DNA of 64,000 bases from a virus (lineage: Duplodnaviria; Caudoviricetes): positions 1 through 64,000 of IMG/VR virus record IMGVR_UViG_3300028591_000164. One strand, 5' to 3'. The notes beneath the pieces were generated by a model. That model was not told the origin of the DNA. It ran no database searches and saw only the letters and a program-made list of their open reading frames with translations. A program made the translations under genes and the position numbers. The first letter of the stretch is position 1. Each line of letters starts with the position of its first letter. Shown here piece by piece: positions 21,101-51,546 of this stretch.

Positions 21101-24100
21101 ATTTTCTGCTATGGAAAATCTTTAGAAAGTAACCAAAGGCGGATTAATAGATAAAACTACTTATGAATTAGGTTAGACAGCTGGATTATTAACTGCTACA
21201 GAAATTGGTAATACTGGCATTTATGAAGTTACTTCTGTTGCTTATGAAAATTTAGCATAGGCTTATCAGAATTTATATTCTTCCTTAAAGGCAAGTGGAG
21301 AAGCAACCGCAGAATAGTTAAATTAGATTGCTTTAAAGATTTGGGGCAGTTATGGTTCTAAAGAATAGACAATTATTAGTTCTTTAAGTTCAGCAACAGG
21401 TATGACTTTTGAGCAATTTGGTACTATGCTTACTGAGTTAGGCATTGAGCTTACTGATAATACTATTGGAGAATATGCTGAGTATTTAACTTCCGTTGGT
21501 GGAAATAAATTAGTTATTTCTGATTTTAAGGGATTGATGGATAAACTTGGTTTTGATTCTACTTCAGAAGAATATCAAAAAGCATATAGTCAATATATTA
21601 CATCATTAATTTCTTGGAATAATGAAGCAAATAGTAGAGTTGAAACCGCGATTTCAAATTTACAAAATGCTAAAGTTGGAGATTAGATTAATGTTTATGA
21701 TCTAGTTGGCGATTTAGAGATAAGTAATGAAGAGTTAGGCTATAGTATTAAAAATGGCATTTTAACAATTACTAAAGGAATGAATATTCCTGAAATAATT
21801 ACTGCTGTTTTAGCTACTGCTGATACTAAAATAACTGCTGATTAGAAATATTTAGCAGAACGTATGGCGAACGAATCTAGCATACAATAGCTTTGGTTAG
21901 ATATTGGTAAAACTTATGATTCTGTATCATTTGATTTAATTAAAAAGTTAGCTTAGGCTATGGGTGCCACGATTGAAAGTGTTGAAACTACTTTCTTTAC
22001 AAAAAATGCTGATGGCAGTTATGCTGGTAAATATAATATTCAAGATATATTTACATAGTATGGTGTCGATTTAAATTCTCCGGCTGCGCAAGAAGTTTTA
22101 CGTTTATAGATGCAAAATTATAGAGAGGCTGTTGATTCTGTTATTCAAAATGGATTAAATTCTATATCTAATGGAACATAGAGAATTACTAAAAATGCAC
22201 AAACTGAAGCTATTTTTAATGCCGCAATTCAAGAGGGTACAACTTGGATACAAGAGGGCATTGGAGAATATTTAATTAATATAACTAAAGATAATATAAC
22301 ACAATTTGAAGACTTTATTAATAGACAAACAACATTAACAATTAAGTAGAAATCTAATTATCTTGCTCAGGCTCATTAGAATATTGCTGATTAGAATATT
22401 TCTAAAGTATTAAGCAGTATTGTTGGAAATGTTAATTAGGTATCTTACTAGACGGCGAGTGAGTTAGCATTATTATTAGGTAAAGATCTTGAAGAATTAA
22501 CTACTACAATTTCTAGTGGAATTTTTAGTACATCTTCACAAGGAATTTTTAGTAAGTTTAATGAAGATACTCAAAGTTTTGAATTAGATGTAATTGCTTT
22601 TACTGAATGGATTAATACTTATCAAAAGGAATTAGGTATTAGTAGTGCTACTTTAAAGCAATTAAATAGTCAATTAAAACAATATAGTGCTAACGAAGTA
22701 ATTAAGACATTTATTACTAATAGTAGTAATATTACTGATGATATGATTACAAATCTATCTAATATTACTAATTTTAGTGAATAGTAGATTAAAGACCAAA
22801 TATTGAGAAAAGAAGCGGGGCAATATAGGCTATCTTCTAAAGCTGCTTTGCAATTGGCTTAGTTATTTGGTGATGAAGAAAATGGTTTATTAGAAATTTG
22901 GAAAAATACATATTTAGACAATATTTTTAATGGTATTTCTAGTATAGGTGGTAATGTTTTTACTACTTCTTTTGATTATAATGGGTTAAAATAGTTAGTA
23001 TAGGATATTTAGGATTGGACTGGACAAACATTTGATATTTCGCAATTAGCTTCTTATAATTCATAGCTATAGCAATTTGTATTATCTCAAGAAGGTGTTT
23101 TTGCTAAAATTCAATTAGCGCGCGAACAATTAAAGGCAGCGGGAATGGATAGTGATTTAATTGATGATCAAATATAGAGTATGATTGATCAATTTGGTAA
23201 ATCTATAGATTTCTCTAAAGCATTTGATTTTAAAGCAATTGATGCTTCAAGCCAGAAACGTAATATGGCGCAATTGAATGCCAACGCTCAAGCTTATTAT
23301 GAAATGTTATATGCCGCGGGTAATTGGTCAGAGGCTAGTTTATTTAGATATAATTATGAAACTATGTTACAAGGTGGTTAGGCGGGATTAAATGCTGCTT
23401 ATAAAGTATATGAATAGACGGGTCAAGAATTGACTGCTGATATTGCTAAAAAAATATTATAGGCCCCAGTTCAAAAATTATTAGACGGTAAATCTGCGCT
23501 TGATAGTAAAGTTGGAGATGTAATTAGTTCTGAAGCAGCGGCATTAGGTGTCGCCGCGGGTTATTTAGAAGTTAATGAAACTGTTGATGGTTTGGCTCAA
23601 GTAATTAAGATTAATAAAGATAATCTTGATAATGCGTTATGGGCCTATCTTGATGGTATTCAATAGCAAATTGCTAATGGCGTAGAGGGATTAACAGAGG
23701 AATCTAATAATACAATAGTATCTATTTGGGAAGAACGTGCTAAAAAAGATTCTTCTGTTATTAATGCTTTTGATAAAGCTATGGGAATGACTTATAAAGA
23801 GTTTGGTGATATGGCAACAGAAGCTGGCTATACATTAACTGTTGGCTTACTAGACTAGTTTATAGGTGAAGGTATATTAGAAGATATTGGCAATGGAAAG
23901 GTTCGTATTTTAGACTTTGATAAATTTGCTGAAAAAATGGGATATACCGATACTAATTCTGAAGCATATAAAGAAGCAAGAAGTAAATATCGTGATTCAA
24001 TTATTTAGCTAAATAGTCAAACTCGTGATGATGTTTTAAAGAATATTAATGCTGTAAAAGATGCTAAAATTGGTGATTAGATTAATATTTCTGATATTAC

Positions 24101-27100
24101 TGATTTATTAGGTGATGGTTTAACTAATTTCTTAACAGCAGAACTTTAGGAATATGGTGGCGTTCTAGATAATGGTATATTAACTATTTAGGAAGGAGCC
24201 AATATTTATGGTTTGGCTACTAGACTTGCACAAGTGGCATAGGCAAAAGGAGCTATTTTAGAGAATGATGTTGTTGCCCTTGGAGACGCATTATAGACTG
24301 CTGTTAGTTAGTATGTTGATGTTATTACAAAAGCATTGAGTGGCGGTTTAAAAGGTGGAGATTAGAAACAATTAATTGATTTTGCTAAAAATTTTAATAT
24401 TGAATTAGGCGCTGATGACTTTGTTGAAACGGCCAATGGAATGAAATTAACTATTGACGCTGCGATAGAATTATATAACACTTTAAAATCAATTAAAGGT
24501 ATAGATACTTCTTCCTTGTTCTCTGGTCTTAAGGATGCTATAATAAAACGAGATTAGATTACTACAATGGACGGCATTATGGCGAAAATTGCGTCTATTA
24601 ATAATCAAATAGCAGCACAAAAAGCCGCGACTGGAAGCGTTAATGCGGAACTAGAACGAGAATTAGAATTGTATAAAGAAATTGCTAATGAAGCAATGAT
24701 GAATGATCCTAATAAATATAAATTTATGGATCAAGCATTACCAGATAAATTTTAGGGTCCATTAAATTATTGGGATGCAACAGAAAAAATGATGTAGACC
24801 ATGATTTCAAGTGCTAAGAGTGGCTACATGGGCGTACAAGATTTTTATAATATTGCCACCGAAATGGAAAACCTTGCTAAATTGTCTGGTAAAACCATGA
24901 GTTTTATGGGCGTTGAAATTGGTGAAGGTGCAATGACCGCGGCTGAATTAGTAGAAAAAGGTTTTTCTAATTTAAAAGAAGTCAGTGGTAAAGGTGCTTA
25001 GATCAACCTTAAAGGATTGGCCGATATTGGATTAAATCTAGCTATGAGTTCTAAACAAATGGCCGAGGGCGTAGAAGATGGCATTCATGCTATGGCCCAA
25101 TCTCAAGTTGATATGCTTGACGGTTTAATTGGTTTACTTGAGGCAATTGTTGCTATGGAAGCTATTAGTGATGTTGACACTAATGGAGATCATACCTTAG
25201 ATGTCAGTGAAATTTTTGAGGTTGAGGGCGAAGATAAATTAAGCGAAAAAATGACTAGTTTTGCTAGCAAATTATTGGAAGATATTGAGAAAAGTGAAGA
25301 ACTAAAAAAAGAGTTTGAAGCTTTGAAGATTGGTCAATATAGTCTTTATGAAATTATTAAAGATGCTGCTAGTGGCACAAAAGGTATTAAAATGGCAACA
25401 GAAGAATATACTAATCTTTGGAATGCCTTATATCAAACCGCATTAGACCAAGATTTTGATGCTTCTGATTTAATAGGAATAGTATAGCAGCTTTATAAAA
25501 ATGGTTTAAAAGATATAGAATATACATTAAAAGATGGCCGTAAAATGGTTATAAAAAATGGTCATATTTTAGTATAGACCGAAGATAAAGAATGGGTTAC
25601 AGATGATGGTGAAAAATTTTCTAGTGCAGATGCTGCTATTGCCCATATGGTAAAATTAGAAAGTAAAAAAGAAATTGAAGATTTTAATAAAGGAAAAGAA
25701 TCTAAAGGCGTAACTATTGATGCTAATGGTGAAACCGAAATTACCATCAATGGGCAAATATATAAATTACATGTTAATACTAATGAAGATGGTTCGTTCT
25801 CTATGGATGGTGTTGAAGGTAGTTTCAAAACTCCTATAGAATTACTTAGAGCATGGGTGCGACAAACTTTTAAAGATACTAAATTTGCCAATGGATTAAC
25901 GCCAAATGATTATACTGATGAACAATTAGATATTATAATGGGATTCAAAGTAGTACCAAAAATTACAGGGACATATCAATTAGCGGAAGATTAGCGTAAA
26001 AAACTTCGTGAATTATTAAATGAAAAAGGTATAACTACTAAAGAAGGATTTATTTAGAATAAAGAAGCATTATCTTTAGAATTAGGAGTAGAACTTGATG
26101 ATGACTTATTTAGTAGTGATGAAGCTTTATAGTTGTTTGCTGGTGTTTAGGTAACTGAAGCTGATACAAGTCAATTGGAAGATGTTCATGTTTAGGGTAT
26201 TGTTGATATAATTTCTGTTGAGGGGCTGGATAAAAAAGTTAAAGAATCCGTCGCTTTGGCATTATAGAATAATGAAACTTTCGCTTAGATGGATGAGCGA
26301 ATGCGCGCAGAAGGTGCCACAGAAACATAGCGCTTATAGGCAATAGAAACACTCACAAAAGTCCCAGGACGAACTCTAACGAGAAATGATATAGAGGCTT
26401 TATAGTTAAATGGTAATAATATTCTTCCATTATTAGGAGCTTCGGGAGCGTTTAATGGTGGCTATTCAACGGAATGGTATACTAGTCGAAGTCTTGATCC
26501 AACAATTGGCATGGGATTAAAATATACTTATGATGACAGAACTAAAACTTATGGTATTTATAGAAAAGATATAGAAGCAGAAATAAGTGCTCATCAAGGC
26601 TATTATGATTAGCTTGGCGTGACAGCTGATAATTTTGTTGACTTTGTAAATTATTTTCAAGGTACACATATAGAAGATATGTTACGAACGATTCCAGGCT
26701 TTTCTACTCGTTTTTGGGGGACTCCATTATTTGATTTTGCTAAAAAAATGGGATAGTAGCAGAAAAAAGAAAAAGCTGAAAAAGAAGGCATAAGCATTGG
26801 TAATTTAGAGGAACAGAAATATGATTTTAATAAAAGGAGCGTAATATTAGCACAAACAAATGCGGCTGAACTTGCGGCAAATAACTCTGCTTAGGTTGCA
26901 ACAGATAAAATTATGAATGAATATGCATAGATTGTTGCTAAAGTCGAAAGAGAGCGTGATTTAGTACGTACAGATGCTGGCGGTAATTTTAATGGATATA
27001 CTGATGAAGATTATTAGTCTTTTTTAGACAGCATTCATGAATCTAATGCATATAAGAAGGCCCAAGAATTAGGCCATAATAGTGTAATAGAAGAGCAAGC

Positions 27101-30100
27101 TCGTCAAGCTGCATTAGCCTCTTAGACCAATAAATCTGATGAAGGTGAATATAGATATCTTCATGGGCAGTATTTAAAACAATTTACTGATGAATGGTTC
27201 GCTGGATTCCAAGAAGATTAGAATAAAAATAAACCATTAACTGATACAGAAAAAAATGCTCAATCCGCGAATACGATGTCCACTGCAGCCGCTACTTTCC
27301 AATCTGCTGTTGCATCATTTGGCGCGGCTGTTTAGTCAATGATTATTGGAACTGTAGCAAATTAGCTTAATGGTAAAGATAATGTTGACGAAATAGAGCA
27401 AATTTTAACAGCTTTTGGTATGAATACAAATCAGCAAATAGAAGCAATAAAAAATACTAATTTAATTACAAATCAAAATACTCTTGATGCTCTTAACAGA
27501 TATGAAGAAGAAAAAGCAGAAGCGGCTGGCAAAGAATTCGTAAGTACATTTTTAAATGGAAAATCAATGAATGAAGTCGGTTTGCAAACTTTAATAAGTT
27601 TATCTGAAGCACTAACAACAAAATCAGAACAAGTAAAGGATAGTGATCCTTTTTTATCTAAACATTTACTTGAATTACAAACATAGGCAGAGAGTGCAAA
27701 AGATTTAGCTTTGCGAGAAGCTCGAAGAGAAGCAAATGCTCAAATAACTTCAACAACTCATGGGCCTACTACAAATACTACAAAAGAAAAAAGATTTGAT
27801 CAAGTAAATTCGAGTTTAATAGATCATGGTTTAACTGAATCTATAATAGCTTAGAGCCAAGCCAAAAATCAATTTATAATGGCAGAAACATAGTTGATAG
27901 AATAGCTTCAATAGTCTGCGGATAAAAGAACAAAATTTGCTGAATTTTCTAAAAATTGGGGCTCTTATCTTTAGGAACCAGAAAAAATGTTTAATGATAA
28001 TATAGACTAGCAAAATAAATTTACTTAGGGTTATAATGAAATATTTAATACTAATCTTTCTTTTTCTGATGCTTTAGATTAGGCTTAGGAGCAAATAAAA
28101 GCTTTAAGTGAAACTCCAATTGAATTGACACCAGAAGCAAATCTTGCCCAAGTATTAAGTTCCTTAGAATCAGTTAAGAATATTAATGGTACTATTACTT
28201 ATACTAGTGTTATTAATAATTCTGCTAGAAATACTCAAAACATTACTCCCTAGGCCAAAGGTAATGTAGCCCTTGCTTCAGGTACTCGCACATTAATGGG
28301 CGAACTTGGCCCAGAACTTGTAGTTTCTAATGGTCAATATTTCCTTGCTGGACAAAATGGTGCAGAATTTGTTGATTTAGCAAAAGATGCAATTGTATTT
28401 AATCATATCCAGACTAAACGCTTATTATCTAATGGTTCAAGCGGACGTGGCACGCCATTAACTAATGAACGTAATGCTACTTCAATGGCAACTGGTAATG
28501 TACATGGTCCCGCTATGGCATCTGCTAGTTCTGTACTTTCTACATTAAAACAACTTCGTGCACAATGGCAAGCATTAGCTGATTTAAGTATTGCTGACCT
28601 CGCCGGTAAAGGCGGCGGAGGCGGCGGAGGAAATAAACAAATCCCTGGTTTTATCCGCGATGTTGAACGTTGGTACAATTGGTTGCAGAAGATTGCTGAT
28701 CTTGAAAAAGAAATTACTTATCAAGAACAACTTCGTAATAAAATTCAATCTGATATGATTTCTAATGGTAAAGCATATTATGCTAGTTAGAAGCAATCAT
28801 ATGAAGATATGAGACTATCTGCTATTACCAGTGAATCACTTTACTTGTCTCAAAAAGATTATTTTGAACAGCGTCGTGAATAGCTTAATAGTAAGGATTC
28901 TCCATTAAGTACTTTATATACATTTGATGAAAGCGGTCAGTTACATTTCCAAGAAGGAGCATATCAATGGTTAGCTGATTTGTTTAAGGCTGATGATTAT
29001 GGTCATTAGACATTATCTCCAAAACAACAGTATGAAATGATTTTGGCTAAGAACCCACAATTTGCTTAGTTCATGAAATATGATAGTTCTGGTAAAGAGA
29101 TTATCAGAAAAGACTATAAGAGCGATGATGAATACTATCTCGCTATGGTTAAAGCTTTCTCTGAGCGTATGGATTCGGAAAAAGAAGAAATGTAGGAATT
29201 ATTTGATTCTCTACATGAGCAAGAACAAAAAGTACTTGAATAGATGTAGGCTATGAATGAATAGCTACAGGCTATGAAAGATAATCAAAAAGAAGTTGAA
29301 GAATCAGTCTTAAAGGCTATTGAAGAATCCCGTCAACGTTAGATTGATGAGATGAAAGACACTAAGGAAGCTATTCAAAAGACTAATGAGGACTTTATTG
29401 ACGGTTTAAATAAGTCTCTTGAAAAAGAGCGTCAAATGTATGAAGATACGCAGAAAGATTAGGAATTAGAGCGTAATCGTAGATAGCTTGCAATTCTAAA
29501 ACGTTCTGGCGCGTCTGCTTCATAGATTGCTCAATTACAGGAGAAAGTTGATCAAGAGGCACGCGATTAGTACTTTGATAAGCAACAAGAGCAGATTGAT
29601 GCGGTTAAAGAAGCATCCGATTTATAGCTTGAAAAAATGGACTTACAAATCGAACTTGCACAAGAGCAACTAGATTATGAAAAAGCGCATGGATTGCTTT
29701 GGGGTCAAGTTTATGATATAATGACAAAATCACCAGCAGAAATTGCTCAGTACATAAAAGATAATACGGCTGATTTTTGGAGCTATTCTCCGCTCAATAG
29801 TTCAGAAAAAGCAAATGAGATTCTTTTCAAAGCCGAGCAATGGGCGGAATTCCGTGATGATATTGACATGCAAAAAGCTTCATTGGGCATGATTAACTAG
29901 AATTTAGACATTTTCTTGGCTGCTATGAAAGAAATTCATGGCAAAGATACTAATTGGGATAAAATTGAAGAAACTGCAAAAACAAAATATGAAGCTTTAT
30001 TTGGTGGAAATTTTGATGATCCAGGAAAAACTGCTTGGGAGGCTTATTAGAGCGCGACTGAATATGCGACTAAGCCGCCTAAAACAGAAACTACAACTAC

Positions 30101-30764
30101 TACAACAACAACTGGTACTGGTTCTGGCAGTGGTAGGACTGGCTTGGAAAATAAATGGTACTATGATAATGAAAAGCACTGGAAGCGTAATTGGCACAAT
30201 GGTAAATGGTCTAGAGCAAACGAAGGAGCACATAATTGGACAGTTTTAAATTCCAGTAGTAGACATTTAACTAGATAGTGTACAGTTTGCCATTTAAAAC
30301 GCACAGATAGCGCAAGTCCTGAACCTCAATATTCTATGCCTGAAACTTCAACATAGAAACCACCAGTTTATGACCATCAAATGTCTTAGCCAAAAATAGA
30401 AGTTGGTTATTATTCTAATGGAGGAATTAATAATTAGACTGGACCTGCAATTTTACATGGTACTCCAACAGATCCAGAAGGAATTTTAAATGCCGATGAT
30501 TATAGAGCTTGGAAAGAAGATATAAAAACAACTAACTTATTATATAACGCATTAGCTGATGTCTCAGCATTATAGCATAGCGCGGCCGCGGCGGCAAGTT
30601 CTACAACAAACAATAACAGTGGTATTGTTATTGAACATGCCGAAGTGAGCATGAATGCTACAATAGCTAATGATTACGATGCACGTCGTGCCGGTGAACA
30701 AGCATTAGAGCAAATGCTTACAATCGCTCGTAAATCTGGTACTCGTAGTGCTCAAAGGAGGTAA
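12102..30764 (+). CDS. Giant tape measure protein (~6,220 aa, TAG=Gln)
   Basis: RBS AAGGAG and ATG 12102. All 16 same-frame track fragments between 13359 and 29900 end in TAG, and I saw no TAA/TGA in the stretches translated. TMP core at ~13300-14200 (AQKYGTSIKGAYEV, TRESASNIGSAMKSI); TMP-type motifs MGELGPELVVS and GPAILHGTPTDPEGILN; stop TAA 30762-30764. Confidence 0.82.
17350..24250 (+). repeat. Three diverged tandem copies of a ~720-800-aa module within the TMP (edges approximate)
   Basis: GDQIN at 19272/21678/24072; QRI at 17631/19782/22179; LFE(W/Y)N..LNKYVY at ~18270 and ~20645; EG(V/I)GEYLI in copies 2 and 3. Confidence 0.75.
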
Positions 30765-38391: not shown

Positions 38392-39138
38392 TTAATCTTC
38401 TCCCCATTGTACTGTATTTATTTTAATTTTATTTGCAAAGTATTTTCCAATACATATTGCATCAGCTTCATCTTGTGTACAATTCTAATTGTACCACATT
38501 TTTACTTTATCTTGCGCTAGTTTCTTTTTATTTTCGCGGTGCTGGTCGCCTTCATTTATGCCGCAATATTTGCGCCATTCAGAGGCATATACTAAATCAT
38601 GGTCTATACTTGCTTCAAATAAAGTATCAAGTAAAACGCCTTGTAGATTAGCAAGCACCTAAAATGTTTTAACTTGCGCCTATGAAGCACTTGGACCAAA
38701 CTTCTGTAATTGAATATTCTCAATCCCAACAAAATCTGGTTCCCATGCTTCGAGCGCGGCTTTAAGCCAATTTTTAACCGCATTAATTCTTTCTTCCGTT
38801 GGCAATGTACTATCGGGGCTATATGTCCCATAAGAAACTAGCTAACGATTATCATATATTGAATATCCGGTTGTGCCTGTCGCGGCATCTAATCCCAATA
38901 CTCGTTCTGTGTCAATCTTTTTGGTTGGCACCTTATTTTTTTTGATTTTATATGGGTCGCCGGCCATACACTATTCACATAGCATATGTTTGCGCCATTG
39001 CCCATATGTTTGCTTTTGTAAATGCCCTTCTGGACATTTCATTTCCAATTCTGTATTTAAATTTTTATATTCAGTGCTAATCAATGTCCAATTGTTTTCG
39101 GCCAAATGATTAGCAACTGAATACACGTTAATTGGCAT
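38392..39138 (-). CDS. ruvC: RuvC-like Holliday junction resolvase with N-terminal Zn-finger (248 aa, TAG=Gln)
   Basis: VLGLDAATGTTGYS, VGIENIQ, QDEADAICIG; N-terminal CPEGH...CEQC; 5 TAGs; ATG overlaps the dUTPase stop (TAATG). Confidence 0.8.
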
Positions 39139-39944
39139 TACTTACCAGTACTCCCAAAGCCACCTTCGTCACGCTCGGTAGCTGGAAGAATATCAACTAC
39201 TTGTGGCTTAAAACGATAGGTAGGCATTACAATAAGCTGTGCGATGCGGTCGCCTGCGTTAATGGTATAATCAGAATCAGAAATGTTATCATATAGAATA
39301 CCAAGCTCACCGCGATAGTCGCTATCAATTACACCAACGCTATTGCTTAAACGCAGTGGCGTCTTTGCGCCAATAGAAGAACGTGGTACAATATATGCAG
39401 TCCAATTTTCTGGTAGAGCAATTCGTACACCAGTCTTAATCTTATTACCGACAGAATGCGCGGGAACAACTACTGTTTCGGCCGCGTATAGGTCAGCGCC
39501 GGTGTCTGTATCGTGTGCATAAGTTGGAACATGAGCTTCTTTTTCAAGCGCGATAGGAAGTTCAAAATCATATGTATGATAATGTTCAATTACTTCTCTA
39601 AATAGTTCTGTAATTGGGTCAAAAATTGCATGTAGTAGCGTGCTCTTACTCGCGGAGGGTTGAAGAGTATCAAATATATCCTGTACATCATGCTCTAAAC
39701 CAGCAAGGAACTCATGCGCACCGGCCTTATTTAAGCCGCGGGCTTCTAGACTATTAACAAGCTCTTTCTTGGACTTATCAATTAGTTCAGGGGAATACAT
39801 GCTCTGAATTGTATCACGTAAATTTTCTGCAACCTGCGGAGTTAGTAGACTCTCGTCAAAATTCATAATCTGTGTAATTGCTTCCATTAGGGGGTTTAGT
39901 GTTTCGTTTTCTCCTAATACATCGGCTAGTTCATTTATATCCAT
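39138..39944 (-). CDS. dut: Trimeric dUTPase with ~125-aa N-terminal extension (268 aa)
   Basis: Motifs TGADL, PRSSIG, GVIDSDYRGE, GDRIAQL, RDEGGFGSTG. Confidence 0.92.
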   Translation of the reverse strand: MDINELADVLGENETLNPLMEAITQIMNFDESLLTPQVAENLRDTIQSMYSPELIDKSKKELVNSLEARGLNKAGAHEFLAGLEHDVQDIFDTLQPSASKSTLLHAIFDPITELFREVIEHYHTYDFELPIALEKEAHVPTYAHDTDTGADLYAAETVVVPAHSVGNKIKTGVRIALPENWTAYIVPRSSIGAKTPLRLSNSVGVIDSDYRGELGILYDNISDSDYTINAGDRIAQLIVMPTYRFKPQVVDILPATERDEGGFGSTGK

Positions 39945-40775: not shown

Positions 40776-41708
40776 TTAACCGCCATCCTTTCTATTATAT
40801 CCAAATTCTTGTGTTTTAAAGAAATTAATATAATACTTTTCTAATTCTCCAAGCTAATCTTTATCACAATATATTATGTATTCTATTGACCAATTCCATA
40901 GTCCTTCTTTAAGTAAGGCATGATGCACAGCCTAATCAGCAATTGATTGTATTCCAACAGCACTTTTGAAATGGTCTTGTAAACGCTTTTTAATATTTGT
41001 GCTTTTTCCTATATATGGTTTACCAGTATTTATATTTGTTATTTTATAAATACCAGGTTTATCTTCGATACCAACGCGCTTGAAAGTATCATCTATATAG
41101 GGCTTTACATATTCTGCCCACACTAATTTACTAATTATATCTGGATGTTGAACTTTTTCCGCGACATCGGTTAATAAGAAATTTATATCGTTATGATACT
41201 CTTCCGGAATTTGTATTGTATAGAATAGTTTTTCTTGCTATTCTTTATCATACTATTGTAGTGGTTCAAGTAGGGCTTTAAATTTTTCTTCTTCCTAATT
41301 ATAATTATTTTGAAGAATTTCAATTTTGTTATCAATATCTTTTTGGACCTACTGTAAATTTGCTTCTAACCATGCGGCTTCCTACTTATAATAGGTTTCT
41401 GTATTGGCAAACTATTCTGCCGCGGTTGCTTCCTTTGCAGACCACTTATCTTCAAAATCTTTTTTCCGCTATTTTTCTTGTTCTATAAGAAGATTATCTA
41501 AATTTTTAATTTTCTTATTAACTAAATCATGATAAGAATCCTATTTTATTTGAATTGCATGTTCTAATGAACCCAATTCTTCTTCAAGATTATTAACTTC
41601 CTATTCAAGCTGATTTTTGCGGCTTTCATTTAAAACTGTTTTCTATGTAAGTTTTACTGCCAGGACAATAATACAGATTATTAATACTACAATAATTCCG
41701 ACTTCCAT
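40776..41708 (-). CDS. N-terminal membrane anchor + coiled coil + C-terminal GIY-YIG nuclease domain (310 aa, 12 TAG)
   Basis: Starts MEVGIIVVLIICIIVLAVK; long E/K/Q heptad region; PGIYKITNINTGKPYIGKSTNIKKRLQDH...E...FGYN; RBS GAGGTG. Confidence 0.8.
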
Positions 41709-41736: not shown

Positions 41737-41765
41737 ATTATAACAGAAAATGGATAAAAAGTCAA
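41737..41765 (-). promoter_or_regulatory. SigmaA/sigma70-type promoter
   Basis: TTGACT-17-TATAAT with extended TG, upstream of the GIY-YIG gene. Confidence 0.8.
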
Positions 41766-41799
41766 ATAAAAAGGTGGGGCGATTTTATTTTTTCGCCCC
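41766..41799 (-). terminator. Terminator closing the nrdD-nrdG-FNT unit
   Basis: GGGGCGA/TCGCCCC stem spanning the FNT stop codon, then ACCTTTTTATTT. Confidence 0.6.
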
Positions 41800-42342
41800 A
41801 AATGTGTGTGGAGAAATAAGTAATCCACCAATAATATTGCCAAGCAAAATAGCTATCCAATTTAAACTAAATTGACCAGCAGCTAAGAAATAGAAAGCAT
41901 CCGCTATACAGTGATTAAACCCAGCCGCGATGAAAGCAAATACGCCCAGTACAGTGATATATAGTGGAGTCTCTTTATATGTTGCTAATGTCATTAAAGC
42001 ACCGCAACCGATACCTTTCCATAGCGCTATGGAGAAATCTTGTTGCGCTTTATTTTGTCCTATTGCCGCAGCGGCTTGTTTTGCTTCTGGTGAAGCAATG
42101 AGAAACATCACGGCGATGCCAAATAAATTAAATATCAAAATTAATAAATATTCATACCATTTATATTGTTTAGTAAATAAATATTGAACTTTACCAGTAA
42201 ATAAATTATATTGCATTAATCTGACCGCGCATAAGCCGCAGCTGAATAATAATGCTCCAATTAATGGGCTAGGCGCCATTACATATAACTAGCACCCAAG
42301 TCCAATACATAAACCCGCGAATATAGAATTAATTATTAGCAT
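41785..42342 (-). CDS. Formate/nitrite transporter (FNT/FocA-like) family channel, short form (185 aa, 1 TAG)
   Basis: SIFAGLCIGLG, GALLFSCGL, YNLFTGK, GFNHCIADAFY, LGNIIGG match FNT signatures; several hydrophobic helices; start overlaps the nrdG end. Confidence 0.8.
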
Positions 42343-42823
42343 TGTTTTTCTCCATATAAATTATTCTTTGATTAGAAGAGCCACGCAATGGTAATGTAGT
42401 ATCGCGCTTATCTTGTTCATAGCGCCCATCAATTAAACAATCAATTTCTGATAAAATCTTATCAATAATATCAAGTTTTCTTTCTTTTAATTCTTCAAGC
42501 GTATATCCAGTCCAAACATAAACAATTAAATCTGGATAACGGCTTTTGCACCAACTAATTAAAGCGTCTACCGCGGCGAGATTTTCATCACATAATGGTT
42601 CTCCACCTAAAATACTTAAACGGCGTTCTACGCCATTTTTATGTAGTTTATCTATAACCGTACTTATAGTGTTAAAATTAAATTCTTCACCATAATTAAA
42701 GTCCCAAGCTTCTGGATTATGACAACCGGGGCAATGGAAGTGACATCCAGAAAAATAAACTGAGAGGGAGATACCGGGTGCTGCCGCGGTATCGTCCCAA
42801 TATATACCAGCAATTTTACTCAT
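42329..42823 (-). CDS. nrdG: Anaerobic RNR activase (164 aa)
   Basis: FSGCHFHCPGCHNP radical-SAM motif, ILGGEPL, LIDGRY, LRGSSNQR. Confidence 0.93.
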   Translation of the reverse strand: MSKIAGIYWDDTAAAPGISLSVYFSGCHFHCPGCHNPEAWDFNYGEEFNFNTISTVIDKLHKNGVERRLSILGGEPLCDENLAAVDALISWCKSRYPDLIVYVWTGYTLEELKERKLDIIDKILSEIDCLIDGRYEQDKRDTTLPLRGSSNQRIIYMEKNNANN

Positions 42824-42977
42824 TTTTGTTAATTTCTGATGATATGTCTCTTAATACGTCTAATAAAAGACGAAAAGTTCCATCTGCATTAATAATTGAT
42901 ATATTATATTTATTGCATAAGTCAAATATAATTTTTACTTCATTTTGTTCTATAATTTCTGGAACATCTATCATCAT
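42816..42977 (-). CDS. Small hypothetical protein (53 aa) between nrdD and nrdG
   Basis: RBS GGAGG 5 nt upstream of ATG; exactly fills the gap; overlaps the nrdG start. Confidence 0.45.
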   Translation of the reverse strand: MMIDVPEIIEQNEVKIIFDLCNKYNISIINADGTFRLLLDVLRDISSEINKNE

Positions 42978-42988
42978 ATTTTCCTCCA

Positions 42989-45259
42989 TTAATGTATATG
43001 TTTAACGCGGTCTTCTGTTTCTTTTTGTTTGCCCCAATTAAAAGCATCTTTGTAAGAGCCAGTTAAATAACCAGTAACCCTACGTAGACGAGAAATATTT
43101 TTACTGCCACATTCTGGACAAGATTCACCAATTTCATCTTGATAGCCGCAATCATTGCACATGTCTAGTGGCACGTTTATCGCGAAATATGGTATGTCCT
43201 TATCCATCGCATAATTTACTATGGTTTCAAGCGCATCAATATTATTTTTTACACCAGAAGGAACTTCTACATATGTTATACATCCCGCACTGGAATAACC
43301 AGTTAATTGCGCTTCAATATCAATCTTATCAAAGATAGAAATATCGTGCCATACAGGAACATGAATACTATTTGTAAAATATTCGCGGTCAGAAACATTA
43401 GGAATTTCACCATATTTTGCTTTGAATTTTTTCATCGCTGTGTAGCATAAATTTTCTGCTGGCGTATAATATACACCAAAGTTAAGTTTATATTCTTGTT
43501 TAAATTCTGCGCAGCGCGTTTTAAATAATTGCTCAATACGTTTTGCTAGTTCCATGCCTTCTTCAGTTGTGTGGTCTTTACCGATTAGAATTTGAAGCGT
43601 TTCAGCCAAGCCCAGTTGCCCGATAACAATGGTGCCATGTTTCAATGCTGAACGAATTCCTTCTTCTGGATGGTAGCCAAGCATTGTATGGTTTTCATAC
43701 ATAAATTTTGCTGACGCGGGAGACTGTTTACAAATCCATTCAAAACGTTCAAGAAGCATGTCTTTGGCTTCATGGATTTTTTTGTCTAATAGAAGCATAA
43801 AGTTTTCTACTAAATCCGCTTCTTTCATTATATAATCGTTTTTATCTAGCTTTTCTTTTACTTCCATTGCCAATGTTGGCATAATAATAGTTACTGGGCA
43901 AATATTGCCGCGGCCATCTTTTGTTTGTGGATTAACTCCCGGTTCTGCATTGATGTCTGCGCCATTTGCGGTTCTGCAACCCATTGTAGAGAAGTAAGTT
44001 TTTGGATCATTTATATCATAGCCAGCATTGCCACTCCAATCAACATTCGCGTAGTTTGGATAAATACGCTTGGCAGTAGATTCAAGCGCGAGGCGGAACA
44101 AATCATAATTTGGATCGCCAGGAGCACGGTTTATACCTCTCATACATTGGAAAATACCGCACGGGAAAATAGGAGTCTTATGGAACTTCCCTACACCCTT
44201 TATTGAACCTTCAAGCAACGCTTTAATTACCATGCGGCCTTCGGGTAGCGTACAGGTTCCATAATTAATAGATGTGAAAGGCAATTGATTGCCGCTACGA
44301 GATTGAAGTGTATTTAAGTTATGATACATGCCTTCAACTGCTTGTTGAAGTTCACGCATAGTCATATCCATTGCATATTTATAAGCTTTTGTTGTCTTTG
44401 CAGTTTGCACTAAAGGAAGTATTCTTTCGTCAACTGTTAAATTATGATAAGGCTCAATGGGCATTTTAGAAATATCTACATTTAAGAAATAATGATTTTC
44501 ATTATCTTCTTCAAACCATTTTAGGCCATCTTTGAAGTGCTTCCAAAAACTTTTTCTTACATAAGGAACCATAGTCCAATCTAAATGAGTTGCTGAAACT
44601 CCGCCAAACTACATTAAAGATTGAAGCTAAAATATAACTGCTACAAGTTGGAAAGCAGTATTAATTGAATTAGCTGGACGAACATCTGTTTGTCTCGTAT
44701 TAAATCCTTTGGCTAGTAAGTCATCAAATGGAATACTTAAACAGTTATGCATTCCTACTGCATAAGCGCTTAAATCATGAATATAAATTTCATTATTTAA
44801 ATGATTATTTCGCGCCATATCTGACATACAGAAATCAAGTGCATATTGTTTCATCATTTCGTCGGATGCTTCACCAACGCGGCCACCAAATGAATGCTCA
44901 TCAACATTTGCGTTTTGATTTTGAACATTTTTTGCTTGGAGCTTTTCACTAATTGAGCGAATAAACTCATCAGAACAAGAGCGCATTACGCCGCGCTTAT
45001 AACGATAACGAATGTAGGCTTTTGCGGTTAATTTATCATATTCAGTTAAGTAATCTTCTACTAATTCTTGAATTTCTTCAACATCTAGCGGCCTATCCAT
45101 TTGTGTTGCCACTTCATATACATTATCAGCAATTTTTTTACCATAATCTGGAGTTTTTTGTGTAAAATGAACATCTTTATATGCTTTATTTATTGCTTCA
45201 ACAATTTTTTGAGCATCAAAGTCTACATAATCTCCAGAGCGTTTTCTAATTTGTATCAT
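42989..45259 (-). CDS. nrdD: Class III ribonucleotide reductase with ATP cone (756 aa, 2 TAG)
   Basis: Track halves join as AVIF-Q-LQSLM-Q-FGGVSATHLDWTMVPY; QYKLNFGVYYTPAENL, CNDC/CPEC Zn site, glycyl-radical loop RVTGYL. Confidence 0.95.
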
Positions 45260-45475: not shown

Positions 45476-46551
45476 ATTCTCCAAACCCCCTTAGCAGATA
45501 GTGTTGTAAAATTATGATTAAATAAATCTTTTGCTGCGGGGTATTTTTCTTGTAATAAATTGCGTGCTTCTCGCGCCGGTCCGATTTTGCCGCTTTGCTA
45601 AACAAGAGTTCGCTCAGCCAAAGACTTATTTTTTTTAGAAGGCCCTTTGCTCCATCCTTCTACTAATTTAGAAAGATGAAATAGCGGGTCAACGTAGCCA
45701 AGAGATGGCTATTCATATTTAATTTTCAATGGGATTTTACAAGCCCAAAAAGAAAATAATATATTCATTTTATATATAAAATCTTCTAAATAAAACTTTG
45801 AATATCTAAAATCACCGCCAAGTGTAATAGACACATTAGAAGACTCTGTAATATCAGCCAAAAATTTATTTTTATAATTTTTTAACATATAATGTACTTC
45901 ATCAAGTGGAATGTCCAAGTCAAGAATTATTTCATTTGCGCGACCCATTTTTTCAATTCCACGTAAAGTAAAATACTATGTTAAAGTCTTACATCGTGCG
46001 GGATGGATAGTTAAAATTTTCGCGGGATTGCGTTCTGCTACTTTATTAAGAACTTCTTCCCATCCAGGATGAAATATATCTTTATCAAATATAAAAATAC
46101 GTTTCTTTGTTTTTACTGGTGGAATTGGCAATACCTTGTCGCCCGCGAACATTCTATAATAACTATCATCCAATATATGTGTAATTACATGTGATTTAAT
46201 TCCTTCTTGATATTTCTTTTTAAGTATTTCTTTATATATTGCTGGCCGCGGAATTGTGTAATCAACAATCTATTCTTCAAACGGAATATAATTTTTAGTA
46301 AAATTTGTGCCGCCAAAGATTATATTTGTTGCTTTTTTAAATGCATCAGGAACTTGAATTGGCTGTTCGCTTTCACTAAAAAAATATATTTTATCATAAT
46401 TACTTAATTCAGTTTCATCTAAATCTATAAGGCGGCAGAAAATATTTCTTTCCGCCTTATAGTATGTTGCTAATTTCATTATTTCTATGTTAGGAATTAA
46501 TTTTGTTATAGCAGAAGCGGAATAGAAATCATAATCAACGAGCCCAATCAT
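45472..46551 (-). CDS. Hypothetical protein resembling degenerate phage radical-SAM-like proteins (359 aa, 4 TAG)
   Basis: Three track fragments joined by TAGs; N-terminus IGLVDYD..PNIEIMKLATYY..FGGT; no CxxxCxxC. Confidence 0.55.
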
Positions 46552-48827
46552 TATTCATCCACCTCCGCGCGTTCAAACTGGAATGTTAAATTTTCGCCAT
46601 CTATTAATGTAATTTTCGCAATAACTGGGAATACTGAGTTCTTCCGTTTTTTAGGAATGAAGTTATTTTCTCTTCTAATTCCTTGTACCATTAACTTAGT
46701 ACCGCGACTAAACCAGCTCTTCTCAATAACGTGTTTTTTGCCATCTTCACCACGTTGCGATAACTGTTTATCATATATCGCAAACTGATTCTTATATACT
46801 TTAACAGTTACAACACCAGTTGGAGTTAATAACGTTACCGTATTATGTAATTTATCTTTATCAATTACTGTACCAATAATCTTATGTAAAGTATATACTT
46901 TAACTTCTTGTCCATTTGTTCCACGAAAACTATATTCAATTTCTGGTTCTTCTGGTAAAGTAAAGAAATCATCATATTGTGGTGCCGCGGTGGCAAGTTC
47001 ATGCTCATGATAATAAAAACTAATACTATCCATTTCCCACTTGCTTATATTACCATTACTATATTTTTCCGCGGCTTCATTGTAAATTGTGTCATTTAAT
47101 TTCTGTAACATCTCTTGTTTATGCGCTTTTATATATTCTCTCATTGGGTCCATTGCTTTTTTATAAATGTTATCCCAAACTTTTTGAGAAATCTGCACAC
47201 CATTTTCAATTAAATCCGCATCAAAATTCTTTGTAATATAATTGATTGCTGCATCATTTAATCTATAATAAATACCATCTTTATTATCTTTTAAGAACTT
47301 ATTAAACAAGAATAACTTCTTATAAAATATCATATCTTCTGGGATTAAATCTTTTGTAATCAATGCCTGCATATTTCTTAAATTCAAATCTACCTTTTTA
47401 TCAATAGTTGATTCAAGAAACTTCCGCATTATTTCTTCTCGTGGCATTTTTTCAATTTCATCAAACGCCCCAGATTTAATCAAATTTACAATCTGTATAA
47501 TATTTAATTTATTCTTTCCTAAAAAGTCCTTTAAAGATAAGTATGGGCGCTGCTCCATAATTTCAGTAATTTTTTCTCCGGATATACGTGCGATGCCGCG
47601 TAGTCCGTATAGAATTGTATTTGTTTCCGCAATTGGGGTAAATGTATAAGAAGATTTATTAATATCTGGCGGCGAAACTTGAATCCCGTATCCACCTAAT
47701 TTACCGATTATAGACGCGATACGCCCATAATCTATATTCTTTTGCTTTTTCTTTTTCTTATCTTCTTCATTCGCTGTAATGTCTTTATTTGCCTCTTCCC
47801 ACTCTTCTAATTCTTCATCATCATCTTCTACCGCGGTATCAATAGCGTCATCATCCGGCGCCAATTCTACTTCAATCATTGCTTCATCATTATCATCTTC
47901 AAAATCGACGGTTTGCACACCACCACTATCTACAATAAGATTGGCTGTGTTCCAATATACGATTGGATACTTATATGCTAAATTCATTTCTTGAAGTGCA
48001 ATTATTGAATAGGCGAGCGTGTGACTCGCATTAAAGCCATAGCCGCGGCTTAAAGCAATCTGAACATCCCATACATAATGGCAAAAACGTTCATCGCATC
48101 CTTTTTCTTTAATACCTTTAAAAAACTTTTCAGTTAATTCTTCATATTCTTTTGGATTCTTTTTCGCAATACTTTTCCTTAACTTATCTGCGAATTGTAA
48201 GTCCCAGCCACCACATTCTGGCAACTGAACCAGTTTCATAAATTGTTCCTGCGTGATAGAAAGACCATTTGAAATATCAAGTTCTTTATGCATTAATTTC
48301 ATTCGCTCTTCTGTCAATCCATATTCGCGCATTTCTTTATCCCACATCCAAGGATGTTCACGAAATCGCGCATACTTATCAAGTGGTGATTCTGCGCCTT
48401 TCTCCGCAGCCATTAGACGAATAACGGAGTTTAAGGTTGCGAGGTCGTCTACATTACGCGGATTTGTTAAACCAATACCGCGAATACCACTATCTTTTTC
48501 CATCTGAAACAGTGAAATAATTTTGTGGTCATGCACCATATCCCACATTTTAGGATCTTCGCGTTCAAGCTGATATACATTTAATGCATGTTCATATGTT
48601 TCTCTTAAAGTTGGATATTCTTTAATATAACCATCTTTGACTAACATTTCTAAGCAAACTTGAATTTTATCCGCAGCTTCAACTGAAAGCAAGTCCATTT
48701 TAATTTCTGAAACATCTTCCAAATCATGAAGCTCAAATTGAGTTACAATTGTTCCATCAGGCGCACGCATTAAGGCAGAAGATTCTGTAAAATCTTTGTC
48801 TTTAAACACAACACCGCCTGCGTGAAT
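46551..48827 (-). CDS. dnaE: DNA polymerase III alpha, exon 2
   Basis: Begins IHAGGVVF; KMDLL, QEQFM, ADKLRKSIAKK, YGFNASHTLAY, PPDINKS, OB-fold C-terminus. Confidence 0.92.
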   Translation of the reverse strand: MHAGGVVFKDKDFTESSALMRAPDGTIVTQFELHDLEDVSEIKMDLLSVEAADKIQVCLEMLVKDGYIKEYPTLRETYEHALNVYQLEREDPKMWDMVHDHKIISLFQMEKDSGIRGIGLTNPRNVDDLATLNSVIRLMAAEKGAESPLDKYARFREHPWMWDKEMREYGLTEERMKLMHKELDISNGLSITQEQFMKLVQLPECGGWDLQFADKLRKSIAKKNPKEYEELTEKFFKGIKEKGCDERFCHYVWDVQIALSRGYGFNASHTLAYSIIALQEMNLAYKYPIVYWNTANLIVDSGGVQTVDFEDDNDEAMIEVELAPDDDAIDTAVEDDDEELEEWEEANKDITANEEDKKKKKQKNIDYGRIASIIGKLGGYGIQVSPPDINKSSYTFTPIAETNTILYGLRGIARISGEKITEIMEQRPYLSLKDFLGKNKLNIIQIVNLIKSGAFDEIEKMPREEIMRKFLESTIDKKVDLNLRNMQALITKDLIPEDMIFYKKLFLFNKFLKDNKDGIYYRLNDAAINYITKNFDADLIENGVQISQKVWDNIYKKAMDPMREYIKAHKQEMLQKLNDTIYNEAAEKYSNGNISKWEMDSISFYYHEHELATAAPQYDDFFTLPEEPEIEYSFRGTNGQEVKVYTLHKIIGTVIDKDKLHNTVTLLTPTGVVTVKVYKNQFAIYDKQLSQRGEDGKKHVIEKSWFSRGTKLMVQGIRRENNFIPKKRKNSVFPVIAKITLIDGENLTFQFERAEVDE

Positions 48828-49836
48828 CAGTTATTCCTATGTTACCATAGGCCCAGACTATATCTTCATTTCTTTCATTTTTTCTTCTCGTAAAGATTTG
48901 GCAAGCCTAAGAGCCTCTTCTTCACCATATTTTTCAACAGAAAAAGATTTTGAATGTCTTTTATGATTTTCATCTGTCCATTCACAAATCCAACTTGCTT
49001 TTGCTATTCCTGGCCGCGCTTCTCTCTTATAAACGCCACGAATATCACAAGAACTTTCTTTTCTTGGCTTGGCGTTTGCTGAATTAATTGCCCTGTTAGT
49101 TATTCGCAAATTTGTTTTTCTATTGTCTAGCGGGTCTCTATTAATATGGTCTATAACCATATTATCGTTATCATTATGTAAAATAAACTAATGTAATCCG
49201 ATTTTTTGTAATGAATTTTCATTACTTACAATTCGTATATCATTTTCATGAACTAATAATGTCCATTTATATTGGCTTACTCTTGTATAATCGTCTTTAT
49301 CTATTTTTCCAAACGCTTCTATATTTCGTGTATTTATAATATGTAAGATATAATAATCATCTTTTTCAATATATTCATTTAATACATTTTTCCTAAAAGC
49401 GTTGGCCTTCTTATTTTCATTACGAATATTAGAAGTATAATGATGTAAATTTGTATGCGCGCGACATCCATTAATTTGTTCTACTAAACTTAATGAAACA
49501 TTACATATTTTAGCAATATCTACATTGCGTTGCTGATTTTCTAAACGATGAATAATATCTAAAATAATTTCATCCGAATACTTTTTCATATTTTCACCCC
49601 CTTTATATTATATTTTATTAGGCTTATGAAAGAAATGCGAGGCGCTTCGAGTGGTAGCATCTCCACTCTACTTGGCTACATTCATCACCAATAGTCGTTA
49701 CACCTTCTACCAATAAGTAGCTTGGCACGGGATTATCACCAGCATTTTACGCGGGAGATTTCCCCGTTAGCAGAAAAATTTTCCACACCGCTTGCAAAGC
49801 GTTCACCTCGTTTTACATGGGCTATCACTTACGTTA
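48828..49836 (-). mobile_element. Group I self-splicing intron (1,009 nt, IA-like) in dnaE
   Basis: P1 AUGGGU/GCCCAU with U.G at the 5' splice site; P-like UGCUAACGGGGAAUC; Q-like AAUCCCGUGCCAAG; R AAGGUGUAACGACUA; S AAGAUAUAGUCU; P7 GACUA (49692-49696) / UAGUC (48856-48860); P9 CUAUG-GUAA-CAUAG; terminal G; splicing restores ICGMG|IHAGGVV in frame. Confidence 0.92.
48831..49589 (-). CDS. Intron-encoded HNH-AP2 homing endonuclease (252 aa with TAG=Gln)
   Basis: IDHINRDPLDNRKTNLR (HNH) and SKSFSVEKYGEEEALRLAK (AP2-like); track ORFs 49188-49589 and 48858-49160 joined by TAG; two further TAGs before TAA 48831. Confidence 0.85.
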
Positions 49837-51546
49837 ACCCATTCCGCAAATCAATCCTTCAATACGATTCGCAACTTCCCACAATTTCGGATATTTATTT
49901 ACTTCATTAATAAACATCTGATTCGGTTGAAGACCATTTTCTTCATCACCATAATACATTTGCTTCAATGTATATAACTGTCCACGTTCCGCGCCAATTA
50001 ATGAAGAAACATACTGTGCATTATCTACATCAATACCAAGACCGCGGCACGCGGTTAATATTGCGGATTTTGATTTTTCTAGTTTAAATGTTGCTACATT
50101 TGATACTCGGTTTTCTCCATAAAAATCTCTTAAATGTTCCAATACTTGCGCACGTTTAATACCAGAAATATCAACGTCAATATCAAGGACGCTAACACGC
50201 GCGGGATTGAGGAACCTCCACGGAAATGTAGGTGTTTTTTCGCGCAGGCAATTGATTTGAATAATATCTAACGCATATAGAAGTAAAAAACCACCGCCAG
50301 AACCACGCGCTGGCATGACTAATGTTCCCGCATTCCAACATTCATCTATAATCTTTTGAAGATTTAAGAAATACGCGGACCACTGCGCTTTATTTACTTC
50401 GCTTGAAATCCAAGTCATTTCTAGACACTCATTAAGCGCATCGTATGCCGCTTGATTTTGTAAATCTTCATGCTCGTGAATACCTTCAATAAGCGCCAAT
50501 GCTAATTGATTATCGGCATAATATTGAGATTTAACAAATTTTTCTAATGCTGGCATTAGTCTTGTAAAAGCAAAAACTTCATCTGGTTGCCGCCGCTTAA
50601 ATTTTCTCCATGGAAGTTGAGGAATTTCCAATGGCTTTAAAATACTAAAATCTTCACATTTATCTTTTATTTCTCTAATAGTTTTATACGCAGCCTCAAT
50701 TTGTTCTTCTGTTAAATATGGAAAAAATGAACGAATCTCTTCATCCGTCATCATATAAGTTGTTTCATAAAAACTTTTAACTTCACGCTCACCGTCTTGT
50801 GCGTTTAAAAATGTTTCATGAATAAACGCATCTTCGGGCCGCAGATAATGACTATCAGTTGTAATGATATATGGAATATTTAATTCTTCACTAATTTTTA
50901 ATAACTGCTTATTTACAAATACCTGTTCTTTTCCATTTGAAGGCTGCATCTCCAAATAAAAATTACCCACGCCAAAAATATTCTGAATATATAAACACCA
51001 ATTCTTTGCTGTTTCATAAAAATTAATATCGTTGGTATTCATATATTGAAGTAAAAATCTATCTAACTGCGAACCCAAGCAAGCACTTGAAGCAATCAAA
51101 TGCCCCGGATTTTTTCCTACTATTTCTTTTAAATCTCTATAATAAGTTGGACGCCGCCGCAACCTACGACTAATATATGACCGCTTCCATGCTCTTGTAG
51201 ATAATTCACAAATTTGATGATAACCTTCCAAATCCTTGCATAAAAGAATAAAGTGAAAATATCTATCACGGGTTTTATCAAAATTCTTCACATTTAAATC
51301 ATTACGTGTCAGATAAATCTCATTGCCGCGGATTAACTTAAAATCTGGATGTTGTTCTTTAATTTTCTTATAATATTTTTCTGCTTTAATATAACTTGAA
51401 ATTGTTTCATGGTCTGTAATCGCAACGCATTCATGCCCTAATTGAATTGCTGTATCAATTAGGGCATTTACTTTATTTATACAATCACGAAGTGTCTCAT
51501 TGCTATAATCGGTGTGATTATGCAAAGAACCAGGGTATAAACTCAC
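49837..51546 (-). CDS. dnaE: DNA polymerase III alpha, exon 1 (spliced product 1,328 aa)
   Basis: PHP motifs LHNHTDYS, AITDHE, SACLG, TTDSHY; ARGSGGG; LDIDVD. Confidence 0.93.

Follow-up and report, generated by a model that had tools for sequence, protein, structure and literature searches.

A mini-FNT channel gene beside a formate-type anaerobic ribonucleotide reductase in a recoded gut phage

In a 64,000-nucleotide stretch of tailed-phage DNA (Caudoviricetes; positions 1 to 64,000 of IMG/VR record IMGVR_UViG_3300028591_000164), hereafter the window, a gene for a short channel of the FNT (formate/nitrite transporter) family closes a gene cluster that encodes the class III (anaerobic) ribonucleoside-triphosphate reductase NrdD and its radical-SAM activase NrdG. 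The channel, referred to here as mini-FNT, is probably a formate entry pore that feeds viral deoxyribonucleoside triphosphate (dNTP) synthesis. A phage formate supply had already been proposed in the preliminary description of this locus. That proposal gains from the formate-type active site of NrdD, the linkage of the channel to the reductase genes in phages and the formate-related gene context of its cellular relatives, whereas the accompanying picture of a truncated channel acting on host pentamers was not supported.

Linkage of the channel gene to nrdD and nrdG in phages

Four minus-strand genes follow one another in the cluster: nrdD (42989-45259, 756 aa), a small open reading frame (ORF; 42816-42989), nrdG (42329-42823, 164 aa) and the mini-FNT gene (41785-42342, 185 aa), the lengths of NrdD and of the channel applying when TAG is read as glutamine. 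In the window sequence, the successive genes overlap by 1 nt (TAATG), 8 nt (ATGAGTAA) and 14 nt, and the tight packing claimed in the preliminary description was recovered with exactly the same gene boundaries. NrdG, whose gene contains no TAG codons, was recognized by TIGR02491 (152.2 bits; cut-off 126.1) and PF13353 (133 bits), and its translation carries the CxxxCxxC motif. The channel belongs to PF01226 and consists of a six-transmembrane (six-TM) core without the N-terminal helix. Folding revealed a terminator-like hairpin around the FNT stop codon (41775-41800, minus strand), in which a G+C-rich 8-bp stem holds the stop in its loop and is followed by CCUUUUUAUUU, with a T-run reaching down to about 41763. 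Its energy is -14.2 kcal/mol (z = -4.15), and none of 200 shuffled sequences folded equally well, which bears out the earlier claim that a terminator closes the unit. A consensus terminator scan did not list this hairpin because its loop measures 10 nt.

The linkage of the channel to the reductase genes was assessed by tblastn with the window's NrdD and NrdG in the 6-kb flanks of FNT loci. The viral set comprised the best 80 of 95 confirmed FNT loci, obtained from viral contigs by a family alignment scan, and the cellular set comprised 80 of at least 418 confirmed FNT loci on contigs representing one genome per species. Within these 6 kb, nrdD and/or nrdG was present at 33 of the 80 viral loci, always on the same strand, versus none of the 80 cellular loci. 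The order nrdD-nrdG-FNT predominated among the viral loci (27, two of them cut by contig ends), followed by nrdD-FNT-nrdG (4) and FNT-nrdD (2). Relative to the window's, the adjacent NrdD proteins group into classes at about 77-87%, 68%, 56-61% and 27% identity. On a tree of 161 FNT segments, adjacency requires 8 changes, compared with a shuffled mean of 31, and at least 4 of these are forced by well-supported branches. Furthermore, the same FNT clade can stand beside differing NrdD classes, as in loci L059 and L066 (27%) together with L067 (68%), a pattern that suggests either repeated assembly of the pair or its maintenance through replacement of nrdD. The window's own FNT clade contains 21 viral sequences, 19 of which lie beside nrdG. 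With its three gene orders and at least four tree positions, FNT-nrdDG adjacency is conserved and recurrent across phages, as the preliminary description had anticipated.

The second line of evidence comes from the reductase itself. By profile search, NrdD comprises an ATP-cone, the NRDD barrel (PF13597, 496 bits) and a glycyl-radical domain (PF01228). Its C-terminus carries the glycyl-radical site G730 in the motif RRVTGYL and zinc-ribbon CxxC motifs starting at residues 701 and 714. The best solved relative is the Prevotella copri enzyme (8p23, 385 bits), followed by those of S. thermophilus and T4; T4 NrdD scores 245 bits, versus 53 bits for the thioredoxin-type NrdD of T. maritima. Subtypes were distinguished by criteria taken from the available text of three publications (PMC4493059; PMC9176816; PMC11226230). 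Thioredoxin-type NrdDs carry a third active-site cysteine on beta-strand 6, where the formate type has asparagine, and the P. copri enzyme, which needs formate, carries Cys416 in its finger loop and Cys171 in strand 1, with Asn435 instead of the third cysteine (available text of PMC11226230). In the window's NrdD, N452 aligns with Asn435, C428 with Cys416 and C173 with Cys171. Both the finger loop M426-G-C428, with methionine two residues before the thiyl cysteine, and the pair N172-C173 align with the T4, S. thermophilus and P. copri enzymes. Judged by this active-site pattern, the window's NrdD is of the formate-requiring type (NrdD1): Asn452, Met426-x-Cys428 and Cys173 are the residues of the formate-dependent subclass on which the preliminary description had hinged its proposal, and not those of the thioredoxin-dependent one. 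The pattern extends to the other FNT-linked viral NrdDs, with asparagine at the third-cysteine position in 31 of 31, the methionine in 31 of 31 and the finger-loop cysteine in 30 of 31, and it includes proteins only 27% identical to the window's.

TAG decoding and the architecture of the short channel

Reading this locus as four genes depends on TAG being read through, a caveat absent from the preliminary description. Under translation table 11, nrdD is broken into products of 210 and 527 aa and the FNT ORF begins at Met22 (164 aa). When TAG is taken as glutamine, both genes become full-length, with TAG at codons 211 (44627-44629) and 217 (44609-44611) of nrdD and at codon 18 (42289-42291) of the FNT gene. 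Across the window, summed ORF length increases from 14,654 aa under table 11 to 26,993 aa with TAG as glutamine, a lengthening far greater than that obtained when TGA is read as tryptophan. In addition, glutamine occupies NrdD position 211 in 21 of 30 homologues and position 217 in 27 of 30. On these sequence grounds, recoding of TAG to glutamine is a property of the whole window. A 6220-aa frame amid the virion genes (12102-30764, plus strand) contains 188 in-frame TAGs and is open only when TAG specifies a residue. Neither the window nor the 81,947-bp record, which is only about 47% complete, yielded any tRNA, including a suppressor with a CUA anticodon. Full-length NrdD and FNT require TAG suppression and NrdG does not, which suggests that the pair may operate in a recoded phase of infection.

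Codon 18 also bears on the notion that the FNT gene is a passenger without a role in infection, recently captured from a host or in the process of being lost, with the TAG as a nonsense mutation. The codon is TAG in the window versus TGG (Trp) in the 17 nearest relatives, one transition apart. Nevertheless, TAG is read as glutamine throughout this phage, and codon 18 is variable across the family. The 17 residues upstream of it include the invariant family residues A9, G10 and I13, and the pore residues are intact. The absence of an FNT gene from 11 of the 29 nrdD loci closest to the window's would fit a gene being lost, yet the retention of FNT beside nrdG in 19 of the 21 viral sequences of the window's clade speaks for the opposite. 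A passenger gene is therefore considered highly improbable.

The FNT protein scores 88.6 bits against PF01226 (cut-off 34.6) and covers profile positions 21-233 of 240. Its alignment to solved FocA spans FocA residues 32-267, starting at 32-33, and the approximately 100 residues that it lacks comprise the complete N-terminal helix and C-terminal tail as well as stretches of the loops that connect TM1 with TM2 and TM5b with TM6. The AF2 (AlphaFold2) model, built with 35 relatives in the alignment, reached a pLDDT of 94.8 and a pTM of 0.90 and displays nine helical segments, with TM1 starting from residue 2. In a Foldseek search, this model matched HSC, the hydrosulfide channel, with TMq values of 0.83-0.84 and FocA with 0.82, at a probability of 1.00. 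Model and search together indicate a six-TM aquaporin-like fold with broken TM2 and TM5.

The pore residues are strongly conserved within the subfamily. F33, L47, T49, N72, F137 and H144 were found in 143 of 143 representatives and A147 in 141 of 143; they correspond to FocA F75, L89, T91, N121, F202, H209 and A212. N169 (FocA N262) is kept in 142-143 of the 143, and L37 also counts among the conserved mini-FNT pore residues. Near-invariant FNT pore residues were previously given, in 3KCU numbering, as L89, T91, H209, F75, N121 and N262 (available text of PMC5525234). The subfamily retains the central constriction F-F-H-A (F33, F137, H144, A147) and L47/T49 of the Omega-loop, and a vestibule lysine is conserved. 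From sequence and model, the FNT is predicted to retain an intact channel core with both pore constrictions.

A search of 1.84 billion cluster representatives with the FNT yielded 534 matches at E <= 1e-10, and 140 of the best 150 measured 170-225 aa. A word-indexed search returned 121 relatives of 107-248 aa, few of which carry a name, and then only "formate/nitrite transporter family protein" in metagenome-assembled genomes. Short FNTs of about 180-215 aa thus constitute a large and apparently undescribed "mini-FNT" subfamily that is also present in bacteria and archaea. A published survey of the family discarded sequences with short helices, and its available text describes no mini-FNT-like group (PMC5525234); likewise, the main texts of the literature searched contained no account of such a subfamily. 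Truncation or pseudogene formation was also considered as an explanation for the short gene and was rejected, the short length being family-wide. The preliminary description was correct that the channel is short (185 aa) and lacks the N-terminal helix, but not in treating this as a phage-specific truncation, given that 185-215 aa is normal.

The short form had further led to the suggestion that the protein acts on the FNT pentamer of the host. In this scenario, mini-FNT would manipulate host formate handling, either as a gate-less or blocking subunit within host FocA pentamers or as a release valve. Even the closest relatives in cells share no more than about 35-39% identity with the window's FNT, so that no host FocA partner is evident, and a release valve would work against NrdD because NrdD consumes formate. 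The absence of the N-terminal gating helix would suit a gate-less subunit, and FNTs are pentameric according to the titles of solved structures; the short form is nonetheless the norm in cellular genomes of bacteria and archaea, where it is encoded by an ordinary stand-alone gene in biosynthetic operons. The suggestion is accordingly not supported, and such a role is judged improbable. A holin-like or exclusion role was also considered and rejected, as no observation spoke for it and the cellular homologues lie in biosynthetic operons.

Formate and the alternative cargoes

Cellular loci provide a third, independent pointer to formate. The neighbours of these loci were clustered, and cluster representatives were named with Pfam. 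Mini-FNT lies between purM and purN at 14 of the 80 cellular loci, within an operon of the order purC-purF-purM-FNT-purN-IMP cyclohydrolase-purH. These purM-FNT-purN loci, from Clostridia-type genomes, are L081, L084, L100, L108, L109, L112, L116, L121, L127, L138, L150, L151, L152 and L155. Within 6 kb of the channel gene, any pur gene was found at 16 of the 80 loci, pur or guaA/guaB at 20, and pur, gua or fhs at 22. The gene for formate-tetrahydrofolate ligase (fhs) occurs within this distance at four loci (L094, L122, L137 and L139), two of which show the order FNT-glyA-fhs. Formate is the substrate of Fhs and, via 10-formyl-tetrahydrofolate, the source of two purine carbons. The part that formate plays in purine synthesis and in anaerobic DNA synthesis has also been stated in the literature (available text of PMC11841067). 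Formate-type NrdD in phages, purine operons and fhs therefore share formate as a common metabolite.

These observations can be assembled into a model in which the four genes would be co-transcribed as one expression unit of a TAG-to-Gln recoded ruminant-gut phage. NrdD, activated by NrdG, would reduce ribonucleoside triphosphates to dNTPs, oxidising one formate per turnover, which is the established chemistry of formate-type NrdD. Mini-FNT would be made together with NrdD and inserted in the host membrane as a PflB-independent pore, through which formate (or formic acid), plentiful in the fluid of the gut or rumen, could equilibrate inward into the cell. We infer that the phage would benefit, in that viral DNA synthesis, for a genome of about 180 kb, would then not be limited by the host's own formate production. 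No gene resembling pyruvate formate-lyase was found in the window's record (about 47% complete) or in five relatives, four of them complete; on this evidence, the phage would bring a formate consumer and a conduit and no producer.

What distinguishes formate from other candidate cargoes is that three unrelated contexts, namely formate-type NrdD, purN/purH operons and fhs, have it in common, and that no nitrite or sulfite reductase recurs among the neighbour clusters examined at viral and cellular FNT loci. It is rather unlikely, though well within consideration, that mini-FNT passes some other small anion or acid, the candidates being nitrite, hydrosulfide, bicarbonate, lactate and acetate, or has a general part in the pH and anion homeostasis of the infected cell, in which case the adjacency to nrdDG would reflect shared expression timing and not chemistry. 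Members of the FNT family are known for several substrates, and the best fold matches of the model are to HSC. The slit residues G114/M117 are unlike those of FocA and resemble those of the uncharacterised YfdC groups (available text of PMC5525234), and the only viral FNT found in print was read as a nitrite transporter (available text of PMC8115048). In addition, some phages with FNT have no nrdD, and the purine operons also include a carboxylation step.

Several observations weigh directly against formate entry as the function of mini-FNT. The case for formate as the substrate is drawn entirely from gene context, and the protein fails the FocA equivalog models TIGR04060 and NF008069 (35.8 vs 290.1 bits and 16 vs 440 bits, respectively). 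At the cytoplasmic slit, the window's L37-L47-F48-G114-M117 contrasts with the open-state L-L-F-N-V reported for FocA (available text of PMC5525234). G114/M117 thus stand where FocA has N172/V175, and across the subfamily glycine is found in 130 of 143 and methionine or isoleucine in 133 of 143. A slit of this Gly/Met type has been reported for the uncharacterised YfdC groups (available text of PMC5525234). Moreover, FocA E208 is replaced by asparagine in the window's clade. By alignment and model, the window's FNT has no FocA-type N-terminal helix, and in E. coli, FocA without this helix is severely disrupted in translocation in vivo (available text of PMC11841067).

The linkage also has its exceptions, which belong to the same side of the balance. 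At 47 of the 80 viral loci, FNT does not adjoin nrdDG. Among 13 such records that were searched, 8 have nrdD elsewhere and 5 have none, the latter being rated 16, 34, 35, 87 and 100% complete. Viewed from the NrdD side, 59 of 69 viral loci offered at least 1.5 kb of downstream sequence, and 19 of these 59 have an FNT gene. Of the 29 loci whose NrdD shares 75% or more identity with that of the window, 18 have the gene and 11 do not; of the 30 below that value, 1 has it and 29 do not. The channel, missing from many nrdD loci, is therefore accessory: certain lineages carry it, and NrdD is not invariably paired with it. The agreement of 31 out of 31 in the NrdD active site is a count without a control, since the formate type may in any case prevail among phage NrdDs. 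Finally, RNA contigs from one sheep-gut metatranscriptome library match parts of FNT (41965-42116), nrdG and nrdD exactly at low depth, a weak hint of expression of the three genes; none of these contigs runs from one gene into the next, and carried-over DNA may be present in the library.

Genomic setting, related systems and significance

Downstream of the hairpin, a promoter-like site for the next gene lies at 41737-41765 on the minus strand (TTGACT, a 17-nt spacer and TG-TATAAT; 11 of 12 consensus positions matched) and may mark where the nrdD-FNT unit ends. The site was identified by consensus matching alone, in a scan that gave 19 sites overall versus 21.3 expected. The gene that follows (40776-41708, minus strand) encodes 310 aa with 12 in-frame TAGs, in which an N-terminal TM and coiled-coil-like region precedes a GIY-YIG nuclease domain. 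The small ORF between nrdD and nrdG encodes 57 aa, or 53 aa from an ATG behind GGAGG, and profile searches assigned it to no family above cut-off. Its homologues (65-68% identity, same position) occur in only 3 of the 80 viral loci (L008, L009 and L017), and in the closest relative, L001, nrdD runs straight into nrdG without this ORF in between.

The nrdD gene was matched in 2-3 pieces over about 3.0-3.4 kb in L001, L002, L010, L011, L017, L023, L078 and several of L161-L228, which suggests insertions in these relatives. Records of Thomasclavelia phages annotate an HNH endonuclease within the nrdD region. In viral loci where FNT does not adjoin nrdDG, the recurrent neighbours are those typical of very large phages. 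Genes for DnaK/DnaJ/Hsp20 were found at 10 loci on very large viral contigs (L025, L026, L028, L041-L043, L050, L051, L063 and L064), and a gene of the sodium:dicarboxylate symporter family, which places a second transporter beside FNT, at six (L030, L031, L040, L045, L048 and L077). Among deposited phage genomes, an FNT match occurred in only 1 of 50,697 records, a 4.6-kb unannotated fragment, so that cultured phages provide no FNT context.

The rest of the window is that of a large tailed phage, with a portal, virion proteins, a split DnaE-type polymerase, RecJ, primase, DnaB, Sak4, topoisomerase II and dUTPase, and complete relatives measure 181-190 kb with direct terminal repeats. The DnaE-type polymerase is distributed over two minus-strand ORFs (49834-51546 and 46551-48809), and an HNH endonuclease ORF (48831-49589) lies between them, an arrangement that could represent a split gene or an intron-like insertion. 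The dUTPase (39138-39944, minus strand) is extended at its N-terminus by about 125 aa that match no family. As to the host, there are only hints, namely weak nrdD similarity to Thomasclavelia phages and mostly Bacillota neighbours on the FNT tree.

Among characterised relatives, the FocA channels of E. coli, Salmonella and Vibrio (3kcu, 3q7k, 3kly, 9g49) share with mini-FNT the Pfam family, the six-TM fold, the broken TM2/TM5 and the F-F-H-A constriction. FocA differs in having a PflB docking and gating N-terminal helix and longer loops and C-terminus, mini-FNT being about 100 residues shorter, and in N172/V175/E208, where mini-FNT has G114/M117 and, in the window's clade, asparagine. E. coli FocA is gated by pyruvate formate-lyase via its cytoplasmic N-terminal helix. 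The genetic linkage differs as well, FocA being linked to pflB and the window's mini-FNT to nrdDG. YfdC-type FNTs resemble mini-FNT in the glycine at the N172 position and the methionine or isoleucine at the V175 position, but they have the longest N-termini of the family (42-55 residues) and replace F202 and A212 (available text of PMC5525234), whereas mini-FNT lacks an N-terminus of this kind and keeps both the phenylalanine and the alanine.

The NrdD-NrdG systems of T4, E. coli and P. copri (1h78, 8p23) share the active-site pattern, the zinc ribbon and the glycyl-radical motif with the window's system, and the ATP-cone is as in P. copri. In contrast to the window, no dedicated channel gene in their operons is described in the literature searched, and only the window's nrdD needs TAG to be read as glutamine at two codons. 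Within the literature searched, a phage FNT paired with an enzyme that uses its cargo is described once, as the cyanophage focA-nirA pair, in which, as is predicted for the window, the phage FNT gene shares one transcription unit with an enzyme using its anion (available text of PMC8115048). That protein is a full-length nitrite transporter, 86% identical to the host gene and accompanied by nitrite reductase on a single marine scaffold (available text of PMC8115048). The window's module, unlike the cyanophage pair, couples a divergent mini-FNT to formate-type NrdD/NrdG and recurs in many gut and rumen phage lineages. No FNT-nrdDG module is described in the main texts of the literature searched on formate, NrdD and phage transporters.

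Altogether, phages, whose auxiliary genes mostly encode enzymes, rarely pair a channel with the enzyme that uses up its presumed cargo, and this pairing suggests that the supply of reductant can limit viral DNA synthesis in anaerobes. Repeated assembly with different NrdD lineages and gene orders is a signal that usually marks real functional coupling. The presence of the mini-FNT subfamily in purine and formyl-folate clusters points specifically to it as a route by which gut anaerobes might take up formate, and the window's FNT, the smallest natural FNT core in this analysis, offers an attractive minimal model for channels without a gating helix. More tentatively, it is possible, if still somewhat doubtful, that mini-FNT is a constitutively usable, PflB-free pore by which large phages of the rumen and gut could draw on extracellular formate for their DNA synthesis, and that in gut Clostridia, Bacteroidales and certain archaea related to methanogens the same subfamily takes up formate for purine and one-carbon synthesis. 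If so, phage productivity would be tied to the community's interspecies formate pool, on which methanogens also feed.

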